NCBI GenBank assembly: GCA_039679675.1
Contig: JBDKUN010000059.1
Coordinates: 127,608 to 191,607, forward strand
DNA: 64,000 nt
From: Armatimonadota bacterium
GTDB lineage: Bacteria; Armatimonadota; UBA5829; DTLH01
Reading direction: 5' to 3'
The notes under the pieces were generated by a model, which worked only from the letters and a program-made list of their open reading frames with translations, was not told the DNA's origin and did no database searches. Shown piece after piece: positions 24,203 through 35,847 of the stretch (its first letter is position 1; every line of letters starts with the position of its first letter). The translations under genes were made by a program, and so were the position numbers.

Positions 24203-25186
24203 CTATTCGTCTTTTGTATTAGCGAGAGCGCGTATTTCACCGCAGGTTACGGCGGCTACACCGACTTTTCTTACTGCAGCGCCGCCTGCCAGGTTGCCGA
24301 TCTTTGCCGCGGCCACCGGTGATGCTCCTGCCGCAAGGGCAAGACTGATTGCGCTGATTACAGTGTCCCCCGCGCCGGTGACATCATATACTTCTATAGG
24401 GACTGCAGGAAGCGTTGCGTCGAAGTCTTTGCTGAATATAGTAAGTCCAACAGAGCCGCGGGTTACTACCAGGCAATCAAGCGAAAGTTCCGATAACATG
24501 CTCCGCCCTGAGGCCTTGATAATCTCTTCGTCCTTAAATTTCAACCCGGCAACGGTTTCCGCCTCAGACTGGTTGAGTGCAACCAGCCTTGCACCCTGGA
24601 ACCCGCGAATATTGACCGGTTTTGCGTTTGCAGTGCATATCTTCCCCATTCCACTTGCAAGCGCGACAACTCTTGAGGCAACTTCCGGCTTCAGCACGCC
24701 TTTGTTATAATCAGAGAGCACCAGAACATCACAGTCTTTCAGTTTTTCGCGAATATTTTCCAGTATTTCCTCGATAACGGCTTCATCTACGGGATCCTGT
24801 GTCTCTCTATCGACCCTTACAACCTGCTGCCTGTGAGAAACCCATATCCGAGTCTTGCGCGTGGTCACGCGTGACTGGTCAACCACCAACCCGCTTGTGT
24901 CAACACCTGCATTAGAGAGTTTCTTCGCCAGCTCTTCTCCATACGGATCGTTACCGACCACGCCGACTACTGCCACGCTTCCGCCAAGTGCTCTGATGTT
25001 ATTTGCAACATTTGCAGCACCGCCGGGAAGCACTTCAGAGTCGCCATTTGCGTCTACCACGAGCACTGGCGCTTCAGGTGACACGCGGCTGGTTGTCCCC
25101 CAGATGTGCTCATCCACCATCAAATCACCGACGACAAGAGCCCTCAACTGGCCAAATCGTTCGAGAATGTGAGACAAGCTATCCAA
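24203..25186 (-). CDS. hldA: D-glycero-beta-D-manno-heptose-7-phosphate kinase (RfaE domain I / HldA-type PfkB kinase)
   Basis: ALVVGDLMVDEHIWGTTSRVSPEAPVLVV and the C-terminal DVTGAGDT motif. Only the kinase domain is present (327 aa). It is the last gene of the LPS cluster. Confidence 0.7.
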   Translation of the reverse strand: MDSLSHILERFGQLRALVVGDLMVDEHIWGTTSRVSPEAPVLVVDANGDSEVLPGGAANVANNIRALGGSVAVVGVVGNDPYGEELAKKLSNAGVDTSGLVVDQSRVTTRKTRIWVSHRQQVVRVDRETQDPVDEAVIEEILENIREKLKDCDVLVLSDYNKGVLKPEVASRVVALASGMGKICTANAKPVNIRGFQGARLVALNQSEAETVAGLKFKDEEIIKASGRSMLSELSLDCLVVTRGSVGLTIFSKDFDATLPAVPIEVYDVTGAGDTVISAISLALAAGASPVAAAKIGNLAGGAAVRKVGVAAVTCGEIRALANTKDE

Positions 25187-25190
25187 AGAC

Positions 25191-26147
25191 CTAACCCTCC
25201 TGTGACTCTATTACCGCAGCCGCGATTAGCGGCAGCATGATCTCATGATGCCCCACCAGCGATACCGACCTTCCTCCAAGCGCGCGTACCCGCCTAACAA
25301 TCTGTTCTTCTGATCGGTATTGGCGTATAAAGTCTAGGTTTACCGCAAATACTTTATCCATATTGCACCCGATGTTCGTTGCCATTGCAAATGACTTCAA
25401 TGCTACTTCGGGAAGTATTACGGCGGAGCCTACATTAAGGAGCACCCCACCCAACTGCATTAAATCTTCAATTTCGGCTGCGAATATCCTGAAGTCACGT
25501 AGCGAACAATCGCCTATGGCTGAACCATCGGCTCCCGGATGCATATGGACTATGTCCGTACCTATTCCGACATGCACCGTCACCGGAATTTCTGCTCTAC
25601 TTGCCGCAACAAGCAGACTTGAGCCTATACCCGGCGCATTTGACTTTATAAGCCTTTCGCCAAGAGATTCACCAAATCCCCGTTTCGATTCCAGACCGGC
25701 TACAGCCGCAGAGTTCACAAACTGAGCGGTCTCCATGCCCATGCCGAACTTGCCTTCCTTCAGGCCGGCCACTACATCCTCTGATGTACGGCCGTAGAGC
25801 GCCATTTCCGTGTCATGTATCGCGCCTGCGCCGTTCATGGCAAGCCCAGTGATGATCCCTCTGGCAATAAGGTCTGCTATAACCGGAGACAGCCCGCATT
25901 TGATGACATGAGCTCCGATTGAAAGGATAACCGGGCGCTTCTCGTGGGCCGCATCCGAGATGGCTGTTACTGCTGCTTTAATATCCCTGCCTGCCAGAAT
26001 ATCAGGAAAAGATGAAATAAGGTCGGTTATCTTACCGCCCGCTCGCCATGCAGACGCCGCACTTCCAATCTCGACCTTTCTATGCTGTTTTCCGACCTCA
26101 TGAGCCTTTATCCGGCTGCAATCAAATTCTCTAAACTTCGATGACAT
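25191..26147 (-). CDS. Deoxyhypusine synthase-like (DHS-like NAD-binding fold) protein of unknown role
   Basis: GRDIKAAVTAISDAAHEK...LSIGAHVIKCGLSPVIADLIARGIITGLAMNGAGAIHD aligns by eye with human DHPS GRAVQQVNAMIEKK...[38 protein letters not shown], including the shared IKC, and IPVTVHVGIGTDIVHMHP aligns with [21 protein letters not shown]. The assignment is by memory only. Confidence 0.4.
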   Translation of the reverse strand: MSSKFREFDCSRIKAHEVGKQHRKVEIGSAASAWRAGGKITDLISSFPDILAGRDIKAAVTAISDAAHEKRPVILSIGAHVIKCGLSPVIADLIARGIITGLAMNGAGAIHDTEMALYGRTSEDVVAGLKEGKFGMGMETAQFVNSAAVAGLESKRGFGESLGERLIKSNAPGIGSSLLVAASRAEIPVTVHVGIGTDIVHMHPGADGSAIGDCSLRDFRIFAAEIEDLMQLGGVLLNVGSAVILPEVALKSFAMATNIGCNMDKVFAVNLDFIRQYRSEEQIVRRVRALGGRSVSLVGHHEIMLPLIAAAVIESQEG

Positions 26148-26169
26148 CTTTATCTTTCCCTAGAAGCGG

Positions 26170-27132
26170 TCAGCTTTTCTGCCAACTACCGAACAACTTT
26201 ACATACAACCAACTTTCGCGCTTTGGCCTGCCCAATATATACCAGAGAGCAACCAACCCATTTACAACTACCTTTCGGCGGTAATGCTCAGCAAGACCGA
26301 GTGTCACTACAACACCCAACGCATTCAACAGGGCCTGTATCAGCGCATTAGTAAACTGACAGCACCCTACCATCAGCTCAGGGACGATACCGAAATGCTT
26401 ACGCATGTAATAACAACGGCCCCGATTTCGTTCAATATAGGATGCTATACGTTTACACCTTACCGAAACCCCAATAAAATGTATGATCTTCGCTTCAGGT
26501 ACATATTCCATCTGCCAACCGGCATCAGCGATCATCTTGGAGAGGTCCGGGTCTTCGCAATAGAAGAAATATGACTCGTCAAAACCGCCAGCCTCTTTAA
26601 ATGCTGCCTGTCTGACCATAATAGCTGCTGCGCAAAAATATGCAATTCCTGCAAGCTGCTCTTTCCGCTCCACCATACTGGCAATTTTATGTCTGACACT
26701 CTTCCTGGCGCTCGAAAAAAGCACCGTTTTGGGAGTCATCAGCAGTGCCACAACTTCCTGATCCTTGTCATCAGCGTCCACAATCCGAGGCGAAGCTATA
26801 CCTGCTTTTGGGTTAGATTCCAGAGCTGATGCAAGACGTTCAACTGCGTTTGGACATACCAGGGTATCGCTGTTTAGAATGAACAGAAACTCACCCTGTG
26901 CCTCTTTTGCGCCAAGATTATTCGCCCGCCCAAACCCAAGATTTTTACTGCACTTTATTACCTTGACCGATGGAAACCGCTCACAAATAGCCTCAGCAGA
27001 CCCATCGGATGATGCATTGTCTACAACGATTATCTCGTAAGGCCTTGGGGGAACCGTCTTCTCAAGAGATGCTATGCAATCAATTACATGCTGTTTTGTA
27101 TTATGATTGACTATGATAACGCTAATATCCAA
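26170..27132 (-). CDS. Glycosyltransferase family 2 (GT-A fold)
   Basis: MDISVIIVNHNTKQHV...EIIVVDNASSDGS...ILNSDTL is the canonical GT2 N-terminal DxD-type signature. Confidence 0.75.
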   Translation of the reverse strand: MDISVIIVNHNTKQHVIDCIASLEKTVPPRPYEIIVVDNASSDGSAEAICERFPSVKVIKCSKNLGFGRANNLGAKEAQGEFLFILNSDTLVCPNAVERLASALESNPKAGIASPRIVDADDKDQEVVALLMTPKTVLFSSARKSVRHKIASMVERKEQLAGIAYFCAAAIMVRQAAFKEAGGFDESYFFYCEDPDLSKMIADAGWQMEYVPEAKIIHFIGVSVRCKRIASYIERNRGRCYYMRKHFGIVPELMVGCCQFTNALIQALLNALGVVVTLGLAEHYRRKVVVNGLVALWYILGRPKRESWLYVKLFGSWQKS

Positions 27133-27149
27133 TTTATTTCTGCTAATAA

Positions 27150-27920
27150 CTACTGTCTATTCAATTTTTCTTTGCAGTTGTTGCTTTGTAATTCCCACAT
27201 AATGGAGTAATGCACCAACCTGAAAAAAACGGGCATTGCTGAAAATACCAACCCCGGCACTCCGTGCATAAACCCCCGCCACAGGATGTAACGCCTGAAA
27301 AAGAGGTTCGGAAGCTCTGCAAAGTGACGGAATCCTACACGTTTTCCCTTAGCGAAATCGTCTTCTGCGCAGGCTCTTGCATACCGAAGGTTCTTCTCAT
27401 ACCACTCTTTAAGCTCTGTTATATTATAATGTTCAAGATACCCCTTGACCCAGCCGCATTTGCCACCGTAAACAAGCTTTGCATGAGTCGAACGGTCGAT
27501 AAACTTCACTCTATCCCTGCGGAATAGCCTTATCTCAGGCTTGGGGTGCATAACCCCGTATTCAGCCGGTTTATCTCTGTAATAATTTCTTCTGAGCATC
27601 TTGTAAACATCATACTCAGGCTCAGTTTTCAGCAGAGACTGTATGTTCTTCGCAAGCTCAGGAGATACAGCCTCGTCTGCATCTATAAAGACCGTCCAGC
27701 GGTTCGAACACTTGTCTGCAGCAAGCTGCCTCTGCCTGTTGGAACCCGGCCACTCGTTATAGAAAAACTTATCTGTGTATTCCCGGCATATATCTTCGGT
27801 TTTGTCAGTGCTGCCGGAGTCGACAATAACTATCTCATCCGCCCATTTGACCGATTCCAGGCACTCACGTATGCAATTCTCTTCATTCTTCGTAATGATG
27901 ATAACTGAAAGCTTTTCTAT
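27150..27920 (-). CDS. Glycosyltransferase family 2 (LPS-core WaaE/KdtX-like), apparently initiating at a non-canonical ATA codon
   Basis: The ATG ORF (27150..27599) is only the C-terminal half. Extending the same frame upstream gives a stop-free EKLSVIIITKNEENCIRECLESVKWADEIVIVDSGSTDKTEDI..., the conserved GT2 N-terminus. There is no in-frame ATG, GTG or TTG before it. An ATA at 27920-27918 sits 7 nt after a GGAGG and overlaps the upstream gene's TAG (ATAG), and it gives a 256-aa product typical of this family. Confidence 0.55.
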   Translation of the reverse strand: MEKLSVIIITKNEENCIRECLESVKWADEIVIVDSGSTDKTEDICREYTDKFFYNEWPGSNRQRQLAADKCSNRWTVFIDADEAVSPELAKNIQSLLKTEPEYDVYKMLRRNYYRDKPAEYGVMHPKPEIRLFRRDRVKFIDRSTHAKLVYGGKCGWVKGYLEHYNITELKEWYEKNLRYARACAEDDFAKGKRVGFRHFAELPNLFFRRYILWRGFMHGVPGLVFSAMPVFFRLVHYSIMWELQSNNCKEKLNRQ

Positions 27921-29011
27921 TTCTCTTTCCTCCGCTGGGAGATGAGTTCAGATGCAGCATCGAATGCACGATCAACCGTAATAGCCTGAAGACATTTAAA
28001 ATCTCCGCATGTAGGCTTATGTCCGCACGGAGCACATGAAAGTTGCTCCCAGAGCACTTTCGACTTATCGCAGTACGGCCCGGTTATCCTCGGATCAGTC
28101 GGCCCAAAGATCGCAACCACCGGAGTTCCCACTGAAACCGCGAGATGCATCGGCCCTGTATCATTACTGACTACCGCATCGCATTTTTCGAGGACCGCCG
28201 CAAGCTGACCGATCTTCGTGCGCCCAGCAATATCAATCGGCGGGTTCTTTGCCTTCCGCATCACTTCATCTACTGTTTCGCGCTCGGATGCCGACCCTAC
28301 TATTAGCACATTTAGGCCATCTGAGGCAAGCCTGTCCGCCAATGCTGCATACCGGTCAGGGAACCACTGCTTCGCAGCAACACTCGATCCGGGACTGATA
28401 GCTACAGTCGGTCTGTCTTTCGTTATTCCGACGGATTCGAGCAGGTCTGCTGCAAATTCACGTTCCTCTTTCGATGTAAACATCTCCATTTTGGGGTTTC
28501 GGACATCCGCGCCGATCGTCCGCACAAGATCGAGATACCAATCCACCCTGTGGCAGCCGGGCCTGCGTGAAACTGGATGCGTCAGAAACCTTGTCAGCCC
28601 AGGCTCATCGAACCCGACTCTTGTGGTCGCACCGGCCCACTTTCCGAGCGCGGCCATTCTGACGGAACTGAAGGTAAAGAGCACGCTCGTATCGCACCCG
28701 CCGGCGCGCACCTTGGGAATCATCTTGATGATCGAAAGGGGCCCTCTTTTTCGCGTCAGAACCTCATCAACGCATGGATTATGATTGAGAAGGTCCTCCA
28801 TACCGGAAAGGACGACATTGCGAATGCGCGCATCAGGAAAATTTTCTTTCAGTGCCCTTATCGCCGGTGTAGTGAAGAGGATATCACCAATGTGGTTTAG
28901 GTTGAGCAGAAGCAGGCAGCCATGATTGTTATGCAAATCAGGCAACCTCTTTTCGTGTATTTGGTTGAAGCGCGTTCTGCAAAACATCGCGATATACGCG
29001 CAGATTGCCAT
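27917..29011 (-). CDS. waaF: ADP-heptose:LPS heptosyltransferase (GT9; WaaF/RfaF-like)
   Basis: LLLNLNHIGDILFTTPAIRAL (the GT9 N-terminal R-x-SS-x-GD region) and C-terminal VSNDTGPMHLAVSVGTPVVAIFGPT. The true start is probably a later ATG, GTG or TTG than 29011. Confidence 0.7.
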   Translation of the reverse strand: MAICAYIAMFCRTRFNQIHEKRLPDLHNNHGCLLLLNLNHIGDILFTTPAIRALKENFPDARIRNVVLSGMEDLLNHNPCVDEVLTRKRGPLSIIKMIPKVRAGGCDTSVLFTFSSVRMAALGKWAGATTRVGFDEPGLTRFLTHPVSRRPGCHRVDWYLDLVRTIGADVRNPKMEMFTSKEEREFAADLLESVGITKDRPTVAISPGSSVAAKQWFPDRYAALADRLASDGLNVLIVGSASERETVDEVMRKAKNPPIDIAGRTKIGQLAAVLEKCDAVVSNDTGPMHLAVSVGTPVVAIFGPTDPRITGPYCDKSKVLWEQLSCAPCGHKPTCGDFKCLQAITVDRAFDAASELISQRRKEK

Positions 29012-30077
29012 CGACCATCTGATCTACGCTGAATTCAGACTGTACTAACCGGCGGCCGTTTTCACCGAACCGTTTTCCCAGCTCTCTATCACGGAATAAC
29101 TTAAGCACTGATTGCTTAATCGCCTCTGTGTCTTCGGGCTGGATCAAAAACCCGGTTTCCCCATCTCTGACTATCTCAGGAATACCGCCGACAGCCGATG
29201 CAACTATCGGAACACCGGCATACGCAGCCTGCAGCAGCGATACACCAAGCCCTTCACGAAGAGCCGGATGCACTACTACATCCAGATTAGTAAGAATCCT
29301 GTTCATATCTTCTCTGAATCCCGCAAACTGCACTTCTTCCGATATTCCCAGTTCCTGCACCCGGCTTTCAAGTTGAGCTCTGAGCGGGCCTTTACCAAAT
29401 ATCAGAAACCGAGCATCGGGAAACTCCTTCAATATATCCGGTATGACTGAAAAGAAATACCTGTGGCCCTTGCGCTCAATAAGTTGAGCTATTACACCTG
29501 CTACTGGAGCATCCTGAGAAATACCGAATTCTGACTCAAACCACTTTCTATCCCTATCGCACTGAGGTTTTGCCGTTATGATAGCACTGTGGACTAGCTC
29601 AAGCCGTTCTTCATCGATACCACAGTCACTGAGCACTTTTTTTATCCCACCGGAGATAGCTATGATCTTGTCCGGGATCACATTATATTTGAGACGCCCA
29701 AGAGCTCCCAGGCTGATACGGTCATCGACTCGGCGGGACAATACCACTGCGGGGACTCGCGCCATCCTTGCAGCTACCCCGCCCAAAATCTCTGCGCCTC
29801 TCCGGCTGTGGAGATGCACTACATCAGGCTTTACCTTCCGCACCTCACTATAGACTCTCAACACAAGCGAGGGATCACAGTCGCACCATACACTTACGGG
29901 ATGAACGGGTATGCCCGACCGGCGAGCCTCAGTCTCGATAGCGCTTCCCTTCGCGCATACAAGATCGACACCATGCCCTCTCTCGGCCAAGCCGCGCATA
30001 AGATAGACGACCTGCAGAGCTCCGCCGTACATATGCCTGCCGAACTCGATATGCACTGTATTTATACGGCCTTTCAA
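28938..30077 (-). CDS. Glycosyltransferase family 4 (GT-B; WaaG/RfaG-like)
   Basis: GGALQVVYLMRGLAERGHGVDLV... and C-terminal EGLGVSLLQAAYAGVPIVASAVGGIPEIV (the E-x7-E GT4 motif). Confidence 0.7.
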   Translation of the reverse strand: MKGRINTVHIEFGRHMYGGALQVVYLMRGLAERGHGVDLVCAKGSAIETEARRSGIPVHPVSVWCDCDPSLVLRVYSEVRKVKPDVVHLHSRRGAEILGGVAARMARVPAVVLSRRVDDRISLGALGRLKYNVIPDKIIAISGGIKKVLSDCGIDEERLELVHSAIITAKPQCDRDRKWFESEFGISQDAPVAGVIAQLIERKGHRYFFSVIPDILKEFPDARFLIFGKGPLRAQLESRVQELGISEEVQFAGFREDMNRILTNLDVVVHPALREGLGVSLLQAAYAGVPIVASAVGGIPEIVRDGETGFLIQPEDTEAIKQSVLKLFRDRELGKRFGENGRRLVQSEFSVDQMVDGNLRVYRDVLQNALQPNTRKEVA

Positions 30078-31132
30078 CTCTCTGCTCCCTCAAAACTGTG
30101 CGGAAATATGGCTGACTGCGCCGCCGATAAAACTTCCTCCGGCGTTACATCCGTTATGCACTCAAAACGTTCGCATGTCGGCTTTTTAAAGCATGGTACA
30201 CAGTCCATATCTTTTCTGACAACTGCGAAATTATCCCGATTAATATGGTTCTGCCAGGCGGTTGTCGGACCGAATATTCCTATAGATTGCTTTCCGATTG
30301 CAACGCCGGTGTGAAGAAGCCCTGTGTCGACCGCAACTACCAGAGAGCAACTGTCCTGAACTGCCACAGCCTGTTTAAGCGTTGTGCAGCCTGCTATATT
30401 AATCGCAGGGGCCTCTATTTTTGCCAAGATCCTATCGATCATCTCGCGGTCTTTTTTCACGCCAAGGAATATACTCCTCATGCCCATCTCATTCCACAAA
30501 AGATCCGCAAGTTTCGACCATCCTTCTTCAGACCAATGCTTGTTAGCCCTTGTAGTCGCAGGACAAAGGGCTGCCGCCTTTTCTCCTACGTTCAATCCAG
30601 CTTCTATTAATATCTTCGATGCTGACTCTCGTTCCTCATCACTGATAACCACCCGCATATCCCCGTCCTGGTCATCAGGAATGATCCCAAGCGGTTCAAG
30701 AAGCCTCATATAGCAGGCCATACCGTGACGGCAACGGCGTTTCGGAGCAGTTTTTTCGCAAGCTACGGTCTCATTGTAGGCTACTCCGCTGAACTCTCTG
30801 CTGTCAGCATAACCTATCCGGCGTTTTGCTCCCGATGCCGCAGTTACGAGGGCGCTCCGCGCTAATCCCTGGAAATCAAGAGCCACATCAAACTGGCGTT
30901 TTCTCAACACTTGCGTGAGTTTCAGAAAAGATGCCGGGCCGCTCCTGTCAAAGTTAATCGTCTCATCCACATCCGGATTGCCCTCAAGGATTCCAGCCGA
31001 TTTAGACTCGACTACCCAGGTAATCCTGGCATCCGGTATACGCCGTCTGAGCATGCGTACAGCAGCCGTAGTCATAACTACGTCCCCTATCGCACTCAGT
31101 CTGACGATCAATATGGATAAGTTGTTTGACAT
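30074..31132 (-). CDS. waaC: ADP-heptose:LPS heptosyltransferase (GT9; WaaC/RfaC-like)
   Basis: MSNNLSILIVRLSAIGDVVMTTAAVRMLR and C-terminal VAVDTGLLHTGVAIGKQSIGIFGPT. ATGA overlap with the downstream GT4 gene. Confidence 0.7.
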   Translation of the reverse strand: MSNNLSILIVRLSAIGDVVMTTAAVRMLRRRIPDARITWVVESKSAGILEGNPDVDETINFDRSGPASFLKLTQVLRKRQFDVALDFQGLARSALVTAASGAKRRIGYADSREFSGVAYNETVACEKTAPKRRCRHGMACYMRLLEPLGIIPDDQDGDMRVVISDEERESASKILIEAGLNVGEKAAALCPATTRANKHWSEEGWSKLADLLWNEMGMRSIFLGVKKDREMIDRILAKIEAPAINIAGCTTLKQAVAVQDSCSLVVAVDTGLLHTGVAIGKQSIGIFGPTTAWQNHINRDNFAVVRKDMDCVPCFKKPTCERFECITDVTPEEVLSAAQSAIFPHSFEGAES

Positions 31133-31153
31133 AATAAGGATTCAACCGGTTAC

Positions 31154-31894
31154 TTAATCGAACTCTTTCTGCTCCACTCCCGTATTAACAGTGATATCCT
31201 TTGTTTCTGTTGTCGCTGCCAGTTTTCCTTCACTGTTGTATACCTCAGCCTTGCATGGAGTCCAAATCCCGTTTACCTTGATATGGTTGAAGTATAGCGT
31301 CTTCACCTTGAGCGAGTCATCTCCGAACATCCTGTCGCGCCTCAACAATTTATAATCCTTACCGTCAATCCAGATCAATTGATACTTGCTGCTCTTGGCT
31401 GTCTTCAGCTTCAGAACATAAGCAAGTGAACCGTCTTCGTTCTTTTCAGTCCGGACCAGGCTGATATTGTAAATATCCCAGATGACATCAGATACTACGC
31501 CCACATCCAGCGGGCTCATTCGTTTTTCCTGCTCTTTCGATATATCTTCACGTTTTTTGTATCTCATAGACGGGATTCTAATGTGCCGGACATTACCTGC
31601 GGTGATGAATTCAACCTTCATCATACCCAGCACACCGTTTATCTTGAGGCTATCGGGGGCCTTAAACACTACTTTGGCGCTTTTAAACTCATAAAGCTCC
31701 GCGAAGACTTTGCCCATTTTCTGAAGCTCTCGCTGGTTGGAATTGACAACGACCAGATTGCAGCTAAGATCTTTCAGTCCACCTGCAGCCTTATGGACAT
31801 GAGTCTTGAGACTTTCCAGCTCATCTGCTGCGAAAAGCGTGGATGATATTGTTATCAAAGCTATAATTACTGCGAATCCGAATAACTTTTTCAA
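31154..31894 (-). CDS. Secreted LolA-like / outer-membrane lipoprotein-sorting-like protein (hypothetical)
   Basis: Signal peptide MKKLFGFAVIIALITISSTLFAA. The mature part has an alternating beta-strand pattern and is embedded in the LPS cluster. The family is not confidently assigned. Confidence 0.3.
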   Translation of the reverse strand: MKKLFGFAVIIALITISSTLFAADELESLKTHVHKAAGGLKDLSCNLVVVNSNQRELQKMGKVFAELYEFKSAKVVFKAPDSLKINGVLGMMKVEFITAGNVRHIRIPSMRYKKREDISKEQEKRMSPLDVGVVSDVIWDIYNISLVRTEKNEDGSLAYVLKLKTAKSSKYQLIWIDGKDYKLLRRDRMFGDDSLKVKTLYFNHIKVNGIWTPCKAEVYNSEGKLAATTETKDITVNTGVEQKEFD

Positions 31895-32820
31895 CTACTT
31901 GTCTCCATCGATTCCTTGACTGCTTCCGATGCCCGTTTCCATCTGTCGTGGAGCCACAGCCACTGAGACGGGTCTTTTCTGATCTCATCTTCTATTGCCG
32001 TGGTTATTGCCTGCGTCAGCATGTGAATATCTTCTTTTTCATTACCTGTATGAGTTACAGTAATAGGCGGGTATATTCTTGCCCTAAACCGGCCTTCTTC
32101 ATCCCTGCGCGCAAACCCACAGACAACTGGAGCGCCTGTTCTAAGTGCAAATACGGCAGGGCCTGTTGCAGTAGCACAGGGTTTGCCGAAAAAGTCTACA
32201 AATATACCGGTGAACGTGTTCTGGTCCGGCAGTATTCCCAAAACCTCATTTCTCTTAAGCGACCTGACAGCCGGAAGTGCTGAGTTGTCCCTGTCCAGCA
32301 CGTGATATCCGGCTGTCTCACGCATTTTGTTGGCAATGCCGGTCATCGCCGGGTCGTCGCTATTGCGGGCTATCACGTTCACTTTATAGCCGGATAGAAC
32401 CAGTTTTCGGGCAAATATCTCCCAGTTGCCCAGATGAGCCGTTATAAGAATAACGCCATGTCCCTTGGCAAGAGCTTCATCCATATATTCTTTTCCATCA
32501 AGATCAATCCAGGCATCAAGTTCCTCAGGCGGCAGGTGCAGAATATGCAAGAACTCCAGCATGCCTTTTGCAAAGTGCCTGCAGGTGTTTCTGGCAGTTG
32601 CGCGGACCTTCTCACTGCTCCATTCTGGATATGCCGCTGTGAGATTTTTTATAGCTACCCGCCTGTATCTTCGGGACATAAGAAACATAAAGTCTCCAAG
32701 TCTCCTGCCCCACCGGCCTATATTCGATTTGTTCAACCTGCTCGAAAAGCGAAGGAAAACCCATGCAGCTATCCTTCCGCCCAGAAATTCCAGTCTTTTT
32801 CTCAGCTTTCGGCGCGTCAT
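31891..32820 (-). CDS. lpxL: Lipid A biosynthesis late acyltransferase (LpxL/HtrB/MsbB family)
   Basis: Length, the N-terminal basic/TM region and the ITAHLGNWE (H-x4-E-type) acyltransferase motif. Confidence 0.7.
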   Translation of the reverse strand: MTRRKLRKRLEFLGGRIAAWVFLRFSSRLNKSNIGRWGRRLGDFMFLMSRRYRRVAIKNLTAAYPEWSSEKVRATARNTCRHFAKGMLEFLHILHLPPEELDAWIDLDGKEYMDEALAKGHGVILITAHLGNWEIFARKLVLSGYKVNVIARNSDDPAMTGIANKMRETAGYHVLDRDNSALPAVRSLKRNEVLGILPDQNTFTGIFVDFFGKPCATATGPAVFALRTGAPVVCGFARRDEEGRFRARIYPPITVTHTGNEKEDIHMLTQAITTAIEDEIRKDPSQWLWLHDRWKRASEAVKESMETSS

Positions 32821-35210
32821 AAACCAATCACCCTATCCAAAAGCCGATCCATGTTATCTATCATAAGTTCAATGTCCAACACATACATGTTCTCTAGACG
32901 CAGTTTTACGGCATCTTTTGCCGTTGTGACTATAGCTTGTGCACCACTTGACTCAAATGCCCGCTGAACAGCATTCACCCTCTCTTGAGAATACGAACAG
33001 TGGTCTCCAAAGCTTATTCTTTCCTTTATATCCGCGCCGCACTCTCTGAGTAGTATATCGAATGATTCAGGGCTTGCAATGCCGGATACCGCCACTATCG
33101 CCATTCCCTGAAGCCTAGATGTATCAAGTCGCTCGCCCGTTTCACAGTCGATCAAAGCGCTCGGAACTTTACCTGCGGTAAATATTTCCGCATCAGGCGC
33201 ACGATAAGCCAACTCAGCCTTAAGACCGGCTGCGCGGTCGGAATCAACCAGTTCTTTACCAGTGATCATGACCGCGTCGGCTCGTTTAATCCCGCTTACG
33301 GGTTCCCGAAGATCCCCAGCAGGCAATAACATGTTCATTCCATACGGTTTGTCCGCTCGCACAAGTATTATTTCGACATCTCGGTGAAGCTGCCAATACT
33401 GCATTCCGTCATCGAGCACTATCACATCCGGGCTGAACCTTTCCATCAGAATCAGCCCCATTTTGCGCCTGTCTTTTCCGATTGCTACAGGCACTCCGGG
33501 GAGCGCATTAGCAAGAAGCGCCGGTTCATCCCCGCATTCATGTGCATCCAGATACCGTGTAATGCCGTCCGACACTACAGCACCAACCTTACACAGACTT
33601 CCACCATGCCCCCGGCTGAGTATTGCGGGTTTCAGTCCACGGCGCAATAAACCTTCACATATTGACCGTACCGCAGGGGATTTCCCTGTTCCTCCGAACG
33701 TCAGGTTCCCAACGCTCACGACACGGCAGGGGAGTTTATATCGCAGCCTTAGTCCAGTTTTATAGGGCAATAAATACACCCACAGTCCAAGCCCATAGAG
33801 CCAGGAAAAGGGCAAAAGCAGGATACTGGGGGATAGCAAGTGTTCAGATACTCCGCGATCCTTCTGTTCTCTGTTCCCTGCTCCCTGTTTACTCGCCTCT
33901 ACTATCTTCTCCGCATATCTCCTTGACGCGCCCCTGTTTGCATTCATCATCTCAAGAGCATATTTTCGTATATCATCCAGTGCAGGACCGTGTGTTTGCA
34001 GATTTGTTATGTGTTTCGCAAGCTCTTCTTTATCCTTGACTTCAAAACCAACTCCAGCATCCACAGCCTGTCTGACCAGATCGCGCGCTTTAAAAGTGTA
34101 AGGACCGAAAAGGACAGGTTTTCCCTGCGCTATCGGCTGGAGGATATTGTGGCCACCTTTCGGGATCAGGCTTCCCCCGACGAACGCCGCGTAACCAACC
34201 GCATAGACAGTGGCAAGCTCACCGAAGGTATCAAGGATGATAATATCCTCTTTTCCTGATATGTTCTCAGACTGGCTTCTTCTGCCACAGGACAGACCGC
34301 GAGCACTCGCCATTTCGACTATTTCATCGGCGCGTTCTATCTGCCTTGGTGCCAATATCATTCTGAGATCGGGAACAGACTGCCGCGCTAGCTTAAATGC
34401 ATCCAAAACCGGCTCATCTTCGCCTGGATTAATGCTTCCTGCTACAAACACACTCTGGCCTTTTATTAATCCGAAGCGCTTTCTTATTTCATCGATCTCC
34501 GGTTTAGTAAGCGGGTCGGACTCCTGATCAAACTTACAGTTACCGATGACCTCTACACGCTTTTCTGAAGCTCCAAGCCCGATTATCCGCTCGGCATCGG
34601 TATCTGTCTGCATGAGCATCGTCTGAACGTTGGAAAGAGCCCACTTATAGAACGGCTTTATCTTTCTACCATTCTTTACGGTGCGGTCGGAGACAATCCC
34701 ATTTACTATCAGCGTTCGGACACCGATTCTTCTTGCAAATTCGAGGAAATTCGGCCAAATCTCGCTTTCCATGCTTACAAAGACATCAGGATCGACTACA
34801 TCCAGCGACTTTATCACGGAAAATGCAGTATCCAGCGGAAAATATATGATATGATCCGCCTCAGGAAGAGATTTCCGGGCCATTTCCTGGCCTGTAATGG
34901 TCGTGGTGGAAACTATAATTTCCGCATCAGGGCAAATAGCTTTTATCTCGCGGAGTATCGGTGCGCTTGCGACTACTTCGCCGACAGATACAGCTTGAAT
35001 CCAGATACGCGGCCGTGTTTTTGATCTTCTGTGGACACTTTCGGGGAAAATACCCAGCTGCTGCCGCCATGCATTGCGGGATTTCCCTGACCCCAAGACT
35101 CTCCAGATGTAATATACGGCTAGAACCGGACTGAGCAGAAGGAGCAGGAGATTATAAACAATCGGCATCCTGCTTTCCCTTTCCAAACAGTTCCTCAGCG
35201 GCTCTTTCAT
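32817..35210 (-). CDS. waaA-lpxK: Fusion protein: Kdo transferase (WaaA/KdtA, N-terminal about 440 aa) + tetraacyldisaccharide 4'-kinase (LpxK, C-terminal about 350 aa)
   Basis: The N-terminal half has IWIQAVSVGEVVASAPILREI...IIVSTTTITGQEMA and ...GGHNILQPIAQGKPVLFGP (KdtA). The C-terminal half has VVSVGNLTFGGTGKSPAVRSI...ILSRGHGG (LpxK P-loop) and ...FGDHCSYSQERV...IVTTAKDAVKL (LpxK C-terminus). It is one continuous 797-aa ORF. The likely start is the MPIVYNLLL Met near 35168. Confidence 0.8.
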   Translation of the reverse strand: MKEPLRNCLERESRMPIVYNLLLLLLSPVLAVYYIWRVLGSGKSRNAWRQQLGIFPESVHRRSKTRPRIWIQAVSVGEVVASAPILREIKAICPDAEIIVSTTTITGQEMARKSLPEADHIIYFPLDTAFSVIKSLDVVDPDVFVSMESEIWPNFLEFARRIGVRTLIVNGIVSDRTVKNGRKIKPFYKWALSNVQTMLMQTDTDAERIIGLGASEKRVEVIGNCKFDQESDPLTKPEIDEIRKRFGLIKGQSVFVAGSINPGEDEPVLDAFKLARQSVPDLRMILAPRQIERADEIVEMASARGLSCGRRSQSENISGKEDIIILDTFGELATVYAVGYAAFVGGSLIPKGGHNILQPIAQGKPVLFGPYTFKARDLVRQAVDAGVGFEVKDKEELAKHITNLQTHGPALDDIRKYALEMMNANRGASRRYAEKIVEASKQGAGNREQKDRGVSEHLLSPSILLLPFSWLYGLGLWVYLLPYKTGLRLRYKLPCRVVSVGNLTFGGTGKSPAVRSICEGLLRRGLKPAILSRGHGGSLCKVGAVVSDGITRYLDAHECGDEPALLANALPGVPVAIGKDRRKMGLILMERFSPDVIVLDDGMQYWQLHRDVEIILVRADKPYGMNMLLPAGDLREPVSGIKRADAVMITGKELVDSDRAAGLKAELAYRAPDAEIFTAGKVPSALIDCETGERLDTSRLQGMAIVAVSGIASPESFDILLRECGADIKERISFGDHCSYSQERVNAVQRAFESSGAQAIVTTAKDAVKLRLENMYVLDIELMIDNMDRLLDRVIGL

Positions 35211-35847
35211 CCGCCGCGCTTATAGCTTTTCCTATCATTTCAGACCACTTAGTCCGGTCTTCATCCGTCTCACATTTCCCGACATGTATCGGATCACCGA
35301 ATACGATACATGCCTTTGAAAACGGCTTTGGAACCTCGTGTTTATCCCATGAGTTGAACTGCCACACTCGTGAGCAAGCAATACCTACTGGCAAAATGCT
35401 GCAACCTGACCGTTCAGCCATCAGGACTATTCCAGGCTGCACCACCTTTGCCGGACCACGTGGCCCGTCCGGTGTAATAGTTATAATTCCGTCGTCTTTT
35501 ATGCGCTTCACTGATTCGAGCAGCGCTTTTGCGCCGTGTGCACGGCTGGAACCATGGACTATCCTATATCCGCGAGATTGAAGAAGCCTTGACTGCAGCT
35601 CACCGTCTTTTGACACCGAAACAATCGCCCAAAACCCCATATGACGGCAAAAGTATATCGGGAGTATAGTCGTTCCATGCCATGTAGCTATTACGCCACC
35701 ATGTCCTGAACTGCGCATATCTTCAAGCCGGTCTATTCCTACCGGCTTGATTCTCACAGTGCAGGCGATACCGGTGGAAACAAGCCACAAAAGCCGCCAG
35801 ATTATCTCAGTTCTGAGTTTTTTCCAGATGTCCTTCACTGGAAGCAA
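35152..35847 (-). CDS. DUF374 domain protein (lipid A/Kdo-associated lysophospholipid acyltransferase-like)
   Basis: Sits between msbA and waaA, where DUF374 genes typically occur. Contains ATWHGT and ITPDGPRGP motifs. Confidence 0.5.
   Translation of the reverse strand: MLPVKDIWKKLRTEIIWRLLWLVSTGIACTVRIKPVGIDRLEDMRSSGHGGVIATWHGTTILPIYFCRHMGFWAIVSVSKDGELQSRLLQSRGYRIVHGSSRAHGAKALLESVKRIKDDGIITITPDGPRGPAKVVQPGIVLMAERSGCSILPVGIACSRVWQFNSWDKHEVPKPFSKACIVFGDPIHVGKCETDEDRTKWSEMIGKAISAADERAAEELFGKGKQDADCL

Follow-up and report, generated by a model that had tools for sequence, protein, structure and literature searches.

A conserved ATA codon as the probable start of a GT2 glycosyltransferase gene in Armatimonadota

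Where does the synthesis of a bacterial glycosyltransferase begin, if the conserved N-terminus of the protein is encoded in a reading frame devoid of ATG, GTG and TTG? This question is raised by a GT2 gene on the minus strand of a 64,000-nucleotide stretch of DNA from an Armatimonadota bacterium, which was analysed as a whole and is termed “the window” throughout. Read directly on the minus strand, the GT2 frame follows an in-frame TGA (27950-27948), is stop-free from position 27947 and reads THLPAEEREIEKLSVIIITKNEE.... None of the 9 codons between this TGA and an ATA triplet at 27920-27918 is a start, and no ATG, GTG or TTG occurs in the frame before the ATG at 27599-27597, which represents codon 108 if the count begins at the ATA. 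Translated from the latter (ATA GAA AAG CTT TCA GTT ATC ATC ATT ACG AAG AAT GAA GAG), the frame yields 256 amino acids plus a stop. The frame of the preceding gene, which codes for a GT9 heptosyltransferase, ends with ...CAG CGG AGG AAA GAG AAA TAG; its stop (27919-27917) and the ATA triplet share the letters TA and thus form the tetranucleotide ATAG. The last GT9 codons (CGG AGG) also harbour a Shine-Dalgarno motif, GGAGG, at 27933-27929. The elements of this junction are the following:

27150..27920, minus strand: GT2 glycosyltransferase CDS read from ATA (translation, PF00535 match, NCBI MEN6372772.1, dN/dS)
27918..27920, minus strand: ATA, the proposed initiation codon (column shared with orthologues)
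27917..27919, minus strand: TAG stop of GT9, overlapping the ATA (direct reading; ATAG in 8 of 9 distinct ATA-bearing sequences)
27929..27933, minus strand: Shine-Dalgarno motif GGAGG (GGAGG or GAGG kept in every ATA orthologue)
27948..27950, minus strand: in-frame TGA closing the GT2 frame upstream (direct reading and translation)
27597..27599, minus strand: first canonical in-frame ATG, codon 108; would yield only 149 residues and miss the half that contains the nucleotide-binding region and DxD
27917..28936, minus strand: GT9 heptosyltransferase, probable TTG start, 339 amino acids (PF01075, E 2.9e-45)

A first-pass annotation of the window had noted that the conserved GT2 N-terminus is without a canonical start in a frame open to 27947, and had pointed out that an ATA overlapping the heptosyltransferase TAG as ATAG would give a 256-residue product; reading of the minus strand and translation bear out both observations. 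The GGAGG described there is present as well, but the spacer to the ATA comprises 8 nt rather than 7. Similarly, the ATG ORF at 27150..27599, which had been taken for the annotated gene, does encode only the C-terminal part of the protein (149 amino acids), but is not the annotation of NCBI, where the product has 256 residues.

The Pfam GT2 profile PF00535 matches residues 5-137 of the 256-residue product from profile position 1 (E 4.8e-22; 79.1 bits versus a gathering cut-off of 23.3), and therefore the 149-residue ATG ORF is without the catalytic half. In the GT2 frame 116 codons lie between the upstream stop and the first canonical start, versus at most 23 in every other real gene of the window, and among 46 long non-overlapping window ORFs the GT2 gene alone has no canonical start close to the 5' end. 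A genome-wide habit of non-canonical starts was considered and rejected, since the remaining long ORFs of the window do without them. GGAG or GAGG is found near a start in 24 of the 46 window genes, compared to a background of 6%. The window is devoid of tRNA genes and so gives no indication for or against a special initiator tRNA.

The public databases hold two versions of the gene. The NCBI protein MEN6372772.1 from an Armatimonadota MAG corresponds exactly to the window sequence and comprises 256 residues, with Met replacing the ATA-encoded residue; public annotation therefore already treats the ATA as the start codon. The NCBI start is also at the ATA in protein P0001 (256 amino acids, 91% identical), which belongs to the orthologous locus L001. 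The 149-residue ORF, on the other hand, is the output of gene callers limited to ATG, GTG and TTG, and the Logan call of the window sequence (P0121) consists of this fragment only. Such callers produced six wrong models of one and the same family, either truncated or extended into GT9: the Logan/ENA models have 235 (L002), 181 (L003), 182 (L004), 246 (L091), 301 (L092) and 149 amino acids (L096). In practical terms, callers restricted to the three canonical codons cut short or mis-extend this GT2 gene, while the NCBI pipeline obtains 256 amino acids.

Orthologues carrying the ATA were retrieved via these truncated or mis-extended gene calls, and they stem from different samples, runs and assemblers. 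ATA occupies the homologous codon in nine further distinct orthologous sequences, which are 62-91% identical to the window at the amino acid level; in the alignment it is invariant among the window, L001, L002, L003, L004, L088/L089, L090, L091 and L092. The closest distinct relative, L001 (GCA_039680575.1, an NCBI MAG), shows 91% amino acid identity and reads GGAGGAAAGAAAAATAGAAAAGC at the junction, followed by L004 (80%), L003 (78%), L002 (76%), L091 (65%), L088/L089 (64%), L090 (63%) and L092 (62-64%). In four more distant orthologues the same column holds TTG (L006), GTG (L093 and L095) or ATG (L094). Glu2, the residue after the start, is present in 12 of 13 orthologues. A scan of genome contigs identified 3 loci, two of which are Armatimonadota MAGs, and a scan of metagenome contigs yielded distant homologues only (32-45% identity), which served as a baseline. 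In all 80 of these distant homologues a canonical start is no more than a few codons away from the aligned position, and therefore the protein normally begins there.

The signals around the ATA are shared by its relatives. GGAGG or GAGG precedes the ATA by 5-9 nt in all ATA orthologues, a spacer of 8 nt being the most frequent (six of nine distinct sequences), and the motif is kept although the GT9 C-terminal residues encoded by it vary. In L003 and L004 the GT2 frame is closed only 3 codons (TGA) and 5 codons (TAG) before the ATA, and no near-cognate codon lies between; because of these stops, ATA is the only plausible start in both. The first of the readings offered by the first-pass annotation, genuine initiation at ATA, thus gains support from three sides, namely the ATA or canonical codons found at the start column once orthologues are compared (ATA in nine, one of the three canonical codons in four), the Shine-Dalgarno motif in all of them that carry ATA and the upstream stops of L003 and L004.

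L003 (Logan SRR13001968) is peculiar in other respects. A frame difference of 1 nt at the 3' end of its GT9 gene lets GT9 run 10 codons past the ATA, and its GT2 has lost the WADEIVVVDSGSTD nucleotide-binding region to an in-frame deletion of about 27 codons. The locus may represent a decaying copy or an assembly artefact.

Initiation might instead occur at another codon, be it a GTG at position -3 in some lineages, one of the downstream ATC/ATT codons for Ile7-9 or the ATG at codon 108. In L088, L089 and L090 a GTG is indeed located 3 codons before the ATA within GGAGGTG, and judging from its position it could be the actual start in L088-L090; in L092 a GTG is found 25 codons before the ATA. 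Moreover, ATT and ATC are near-cognate codons, too. However, among starts that would retain the domain, a canonical codon upstream of the ATA is absent in the window, L001, L002, L003, L004 and L091. The codons for Ile7-9 lie at least 26 nt from the Shine-Dalgarno motif, and their use would truncate the GT2 fold, which Pfam recognizes from residue 5, in its first beta-strand. Finally, the ATG at codon 108 would leave a fragment of 149 residues without the whole catalytic domain, at odds with the purifying selection on codons 2-107. We therefore regard a start at any of these codons as very improbable.

The strength of this selection is apparent from codons 2-107, where dN/dS relative to the window amounts to 0.045 (L001), 0.086 (L002) and 0.114 (L091). 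Between the window and L001 dS is 0.63-0.79, and it is saturated for the other relatives; likewise, deep ATA lineages agree with one another at a fraction of 0.16-0.41 of their 4-fold sites, which is near saturation. A dN/dS of 0.045 at a dS of 0.63, together with the deeper saturation, implies that the N-terminal region has been coding over long times.

These values also bear on the two other readings that the first-pass annotation had listed, a sequencing or assembly error that conceals a true ATG, and a recent point mutation, which would leave an inactivated gene. ATA is a single transition away from ATG, and metagenome-assembled genomes do contain errors. Against an error, the Logan assembly of SRR15035648 matches the window at every position (100%) along 441 nt that span the junction with its ATAG; the ATA recurs in nine other distinct sequences, which stem from different runs and different assemblers; and an ATG at the junction would abolish the stop codon of GT9. 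Against a recent mutation, dS to the closest relative has already reached the range given above, and deeper lineages are saturated. While a pseudogene would be recognized by a dN/dS near 1 and a lesion confined to a single genome, we find N-terminal ratios of 0.045-0.11 and an ATA common to lineages with saturated dS. Both readings are contradicted by these data, and the chance that either applies appears extremely small. The putative ATA start can be regarded as a real, modestly unusual feature and not as a sequencing error, because many distant relatives share the ATA arrangement.

As for the codon itself, 105 degenerate codon columns have an invariant residue in 8 ATA sequences, but only 3 of them hold a single codon throughout, and the ATA column is among these 3; internal Ile columns in the same sequences mix ATA, ATC and ATT. 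In L004 (CCA) and L091 (CGA) the first A of ATA coincides with a 4-fold third position of GT9, and the A is retained in both. Conservation of the third base of ATA constitutes no independent proof of start function, because it is partly forced by the overlapping TAG. Neighbour-joining groups the window clade with a bootstrap value of 99%, L088 with L090 (100%) and L006, which has TTG, with L092, which has ATA (74%). The deeper branching of ATA and canonical-start sequences receives 8-38% and gives neither a direction of change nor an ancestral state.

Taken at face value, the locus is probably a complete and functional GT2 gene of the LPS core cluster, which would be initiated at AUA with the aid of a conserved Shine-Dalgarno motif, is presumably coupled to GT9 and would give a low output of GT2. 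From the sequence comparison we infer AUA as the codon actually used, and likewise coupling, low expression and an evolutionary lock on the codon. The initiator fMet-tRNA would read the AUA at 27920-27918 by the first two positions, with a mismatch at the third base, while the conserved GGAGG 8 nt upstream would hold a 30S or 70S particle in register. Ribosomes translating GT9 would terminate at the UAG and be released one nucleotide from the AUA (AUAG), where they most likely restart by termination-reinitiation coupling. The outcome would be a small amount of GT2, dependent on the translation of GT9.

Several observations bear on the coupling step. The ATAG overlap is present in 8 of 9 distinct ATA-bearing sequences (the window and 7 others, L003 being the exception), and it is absent in all four orthologues with a canonical start (L006, L093, L094 and L095). 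This association may indicate that coupling compensates for the weak codon, or that the overlap traps the codon. Alternatively, the AUA might be selected by ordinary de novo binding of 30S subunits driven by the Shine-Dalgarno motif, the ATAG overlap being an incidental result of gene packing. The strong, well-spaced and conserved GGAGG would suit such a mechanism, as would the retention of ATA in L003 in spite of a GT9 frame extending 10 codons beyond it and the lack of a structure occluding the start site; furthermore, the contribution of the Shine-Dalgarno motif to coupling is described as differing widely among gene pairs (PMC6728339). However, the tie between ATA and ATAG, along with canonical codons wherever the overlap is missing among the four, is expected if coupling compensates, and of the 14 pairs with 4-nt stop/start overlaps that Huber et al. 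2019 tested, 13 are reported to be strictly coupled (PMC6728339). Initiation independent of GT9 hence seems rather unlikely to us. Reinitiation requires that the initiator tRNA be formylated, and an excess of IF3 diminishes it (PMC2268962).

A conserved RNA structure enforcing the coupling was also considered and rejected: the RNA fold at the junction is no better than that of shuffled sequences (z = +1.03), with no significant structure of this kind. A small hairpin, UCUCC-CAGC-GGAGG at 27929-27942 on the minus strand, pairs the Shine-Dalgarno motif with the ELIS-coding CUCC just upstream. Its core (CUCC-N4-GGAG) is found in the window, L001 and L004 and is absent in the remaining ATA lineages.

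With coupled initiation at AUA as the preferred reading, the overlap would in addition lock the codon. With ATG instead of ATA, the GT9 stop TAG would become TGG and GT9 would be 29 residues longer in the window, and the route from ATAG to an ATGA junction needs a substitution of Glu2 by Lys. We propose that ATA persists because its conversion to ATG would destroy the GT9 stop.

A start codon for GT2 would be unnecessary altogether, if ribosomes reaching the end of GT9 underwent programmed -1 frameshifting and thereby generated a GT9-GT2 fusion protein. GT2 is read in the -1 frame with respect to GT9, and in L001 the sequence GAA AAA TAG would let tRNA-Lys re-pair on AAA in this frame beside a slow stop. 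Yet the slippery site is not conserved, as the corresponding positions read GAG AAA TAG in the window, CGG CCA TAG in L004, GAA CGA TAG in L091 and GGG TAA TAG in L092. The frame relation is different in L003, and GT2-frame stops 3-5 codons before the ATA leave little room for slippage in L003 and L004. Fusions of GT9 and GT2 are absent among the 120 homologues listed, all of which are stand-alone proteins of about 250 residues, and orthologues carry their own ATG, GTG or TTG at the start column. Frameshifting is thus highly unlikely. Transcriptional slippage was rejected as well, since runs of A are only 3-5 nt long and are missing in L004 and L091.

Known cases of initiation at AUN codons provide a frame for the AUA start proposed here. 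In E. coli reporters, AUA supports about 1-2% of the expression obtained with AUG (range 0.02-3%; bioRxiv 10.1101/063800); elsewhere, 7.5% was found in one system, and AUG-like activity with optimised mRNA in vitro (PMC5499595). AUN triplets are occasional bacterial start codons, and the AUU of E. coli infC is a target of IF3 autoregulation (PMC5499595). An ATA start is known from hopF2 of Pseudomonas syringae pv. tomato DC3000, where it is native and is reported to limit expression, other pathovars having ATG (PMC11641854). The GT2 gene resembles hopF2 (ATA) and infC (AUU) in that a rare AUN codon replaces AUG, which in those two genes limits or tunes expression. Unlike them, however, its ATA is conserved across saturated lineages, is fused to a stop as ATAG and is located in an LPS core operon, and it is not known to have a regulatory role such as feedback by IF3.

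Mutations of ATG to ATA illustrate the expected effect. The change is reported to lower expression by approximately 85% in phage T4 rIIB (PMC5499595), and a corresponding SNP in rpoS of E. coli O104:H4 to reduce RpoS (PMC12864459). The codon change and the expected drop in output are the same as for GT2, but the rIIB and rpoS alleles are recent mutations of single strains, in contrast to the old and conserved state of the GT2 ATA. With ATGA-type coupled pairs the GT9-GT2 junction has in common that the genes are co-directional, that stop and start overlap by 4 nt and that the Shine-Dalgarno motif lies within the upstream coding sequence. It differs from ATGA and GTGA pairs by the tetranucleotide ATAG, with a non-canonical restart codon and TAG as the stop, and by a coupling that is deduced from sequence.

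On this comparative basis, the locus can be considered a new case among the rare but known AUA starts; it is well supported, conserved to an unusual depth and combined with an ATAG overlap. It does not represent a new kind of mechanism or system. Its value lies in providing a clean natural bacterial AUA start that persists until synonymous sites saturate, in a column occupied by ATG, GTG, TTG or ATA among relatives. It further suggests a double effect of stop/start overlaps, which can make up for a weak start codon and at the same time lock this codon, and the ATAG junction is suited for asking whether reinitiating ribosomes accept AUA better than ribosomes initiating de novo. A more far-reaching idea, which we put forward tentatively and hold to be possible rather than probable, is that in an old Armatimonadota lineage selection, in addition to the constraint imposed by the overlap, keeps AUA as a throttle, which together with the AUAG restart would set GT2 in LPS core synthesis to a very low, GT9-dependent level sensitive to IF3 or the growth state. 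If so, the codon would rank among the most deeply conserved bacterial AUA initiation codons known, and the junction would be a natural test case for the acceptance of non-canonical restart codons by post-termination ribosomes.

The product of the gene was assigned to the LPS core GT2 enzymes already in the first-pass annotation, which agrees with the PF00535 match and with the LPS core gene cluster around it. Like the GT2 LPS core beta-1,4-glucosyltransferases WaaE, KdtX and LgtF, the protein comprises about 255 amino acids with an N-terminal GT2 domain, and its gene clusters with genes for heptosyltransferases, KdtA-LpxK and a lipid A acyltransferase. Its best homologues come from Armatimonadota MAGs, and a homologue that is 44% identical (P0020) was named waaE by the submitter. 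No curated WaaE/LgtF model matches the product, whose NCBIfam matches are all far below cut-off; the best relative of solved structure is GmaR (E 8.8e-21). The candidate label WaaE/KdtX is therefore based on the LPS-core gene context and the submitter's name for the 44%-identical protein.

The GT9-GT2 pair is part of a larger co-directional arrangement:

24203..35219, minus strand: lipid A / LPS core cluster containing the GT9-GT2 pair (Pfam matches)

According to Pfam, the cluster is composed of a KdtA-LpxK fusion, a lipid A acyltransferase, a LolA-like protein, GT9, GT4 and a second GT9, followed by GT2 (the ATA gene), a second GT2, a conserved protein without a family and a PfkB-type kinase. 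L001 shows the same gene order, and so do L002, L088, L090 and L091 over shorter stretches. Regarding the GT9 gene that precedes the ATA, its mechanical ORF starts at an ATG at 29011, codes for 364 amino acids and would share 74 nt with the GT4 gene upstream. If GT9 begins instead at the TTG at 28936, which GAGG precedes, it has 339 amino acids, and the orthologue in L001 is annotated with 339 amino acids, beginning 2 nt past the GT4 gene. Judged by these positions, the real GT9 start in the window is probably TTG 28936.

Two further members of the cluster deserve mention. The KdtA-LpxK fusion is a 797-residue ORF (32817-35219, minus strand) with PF04413 at residues 47-229 and PF02606 at residues 462-793; this combination of KdtA (Kdo transferase) and LpxK (lipid A 4'-kinase) is present in L001 as well. 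The conserved LPS core cluster member at 25191-26147 (minus strand) has 318 amino acids and is without a Pfam family above cut-off, showing only weak deoxyhypusine-synthase-like or Rossmann matches (E ~2e-4). In L001, L002, L003, L088, L090 and L091 it is conserved in the same place, with the GT2 genes on one side and the PfkB kinase on the other.
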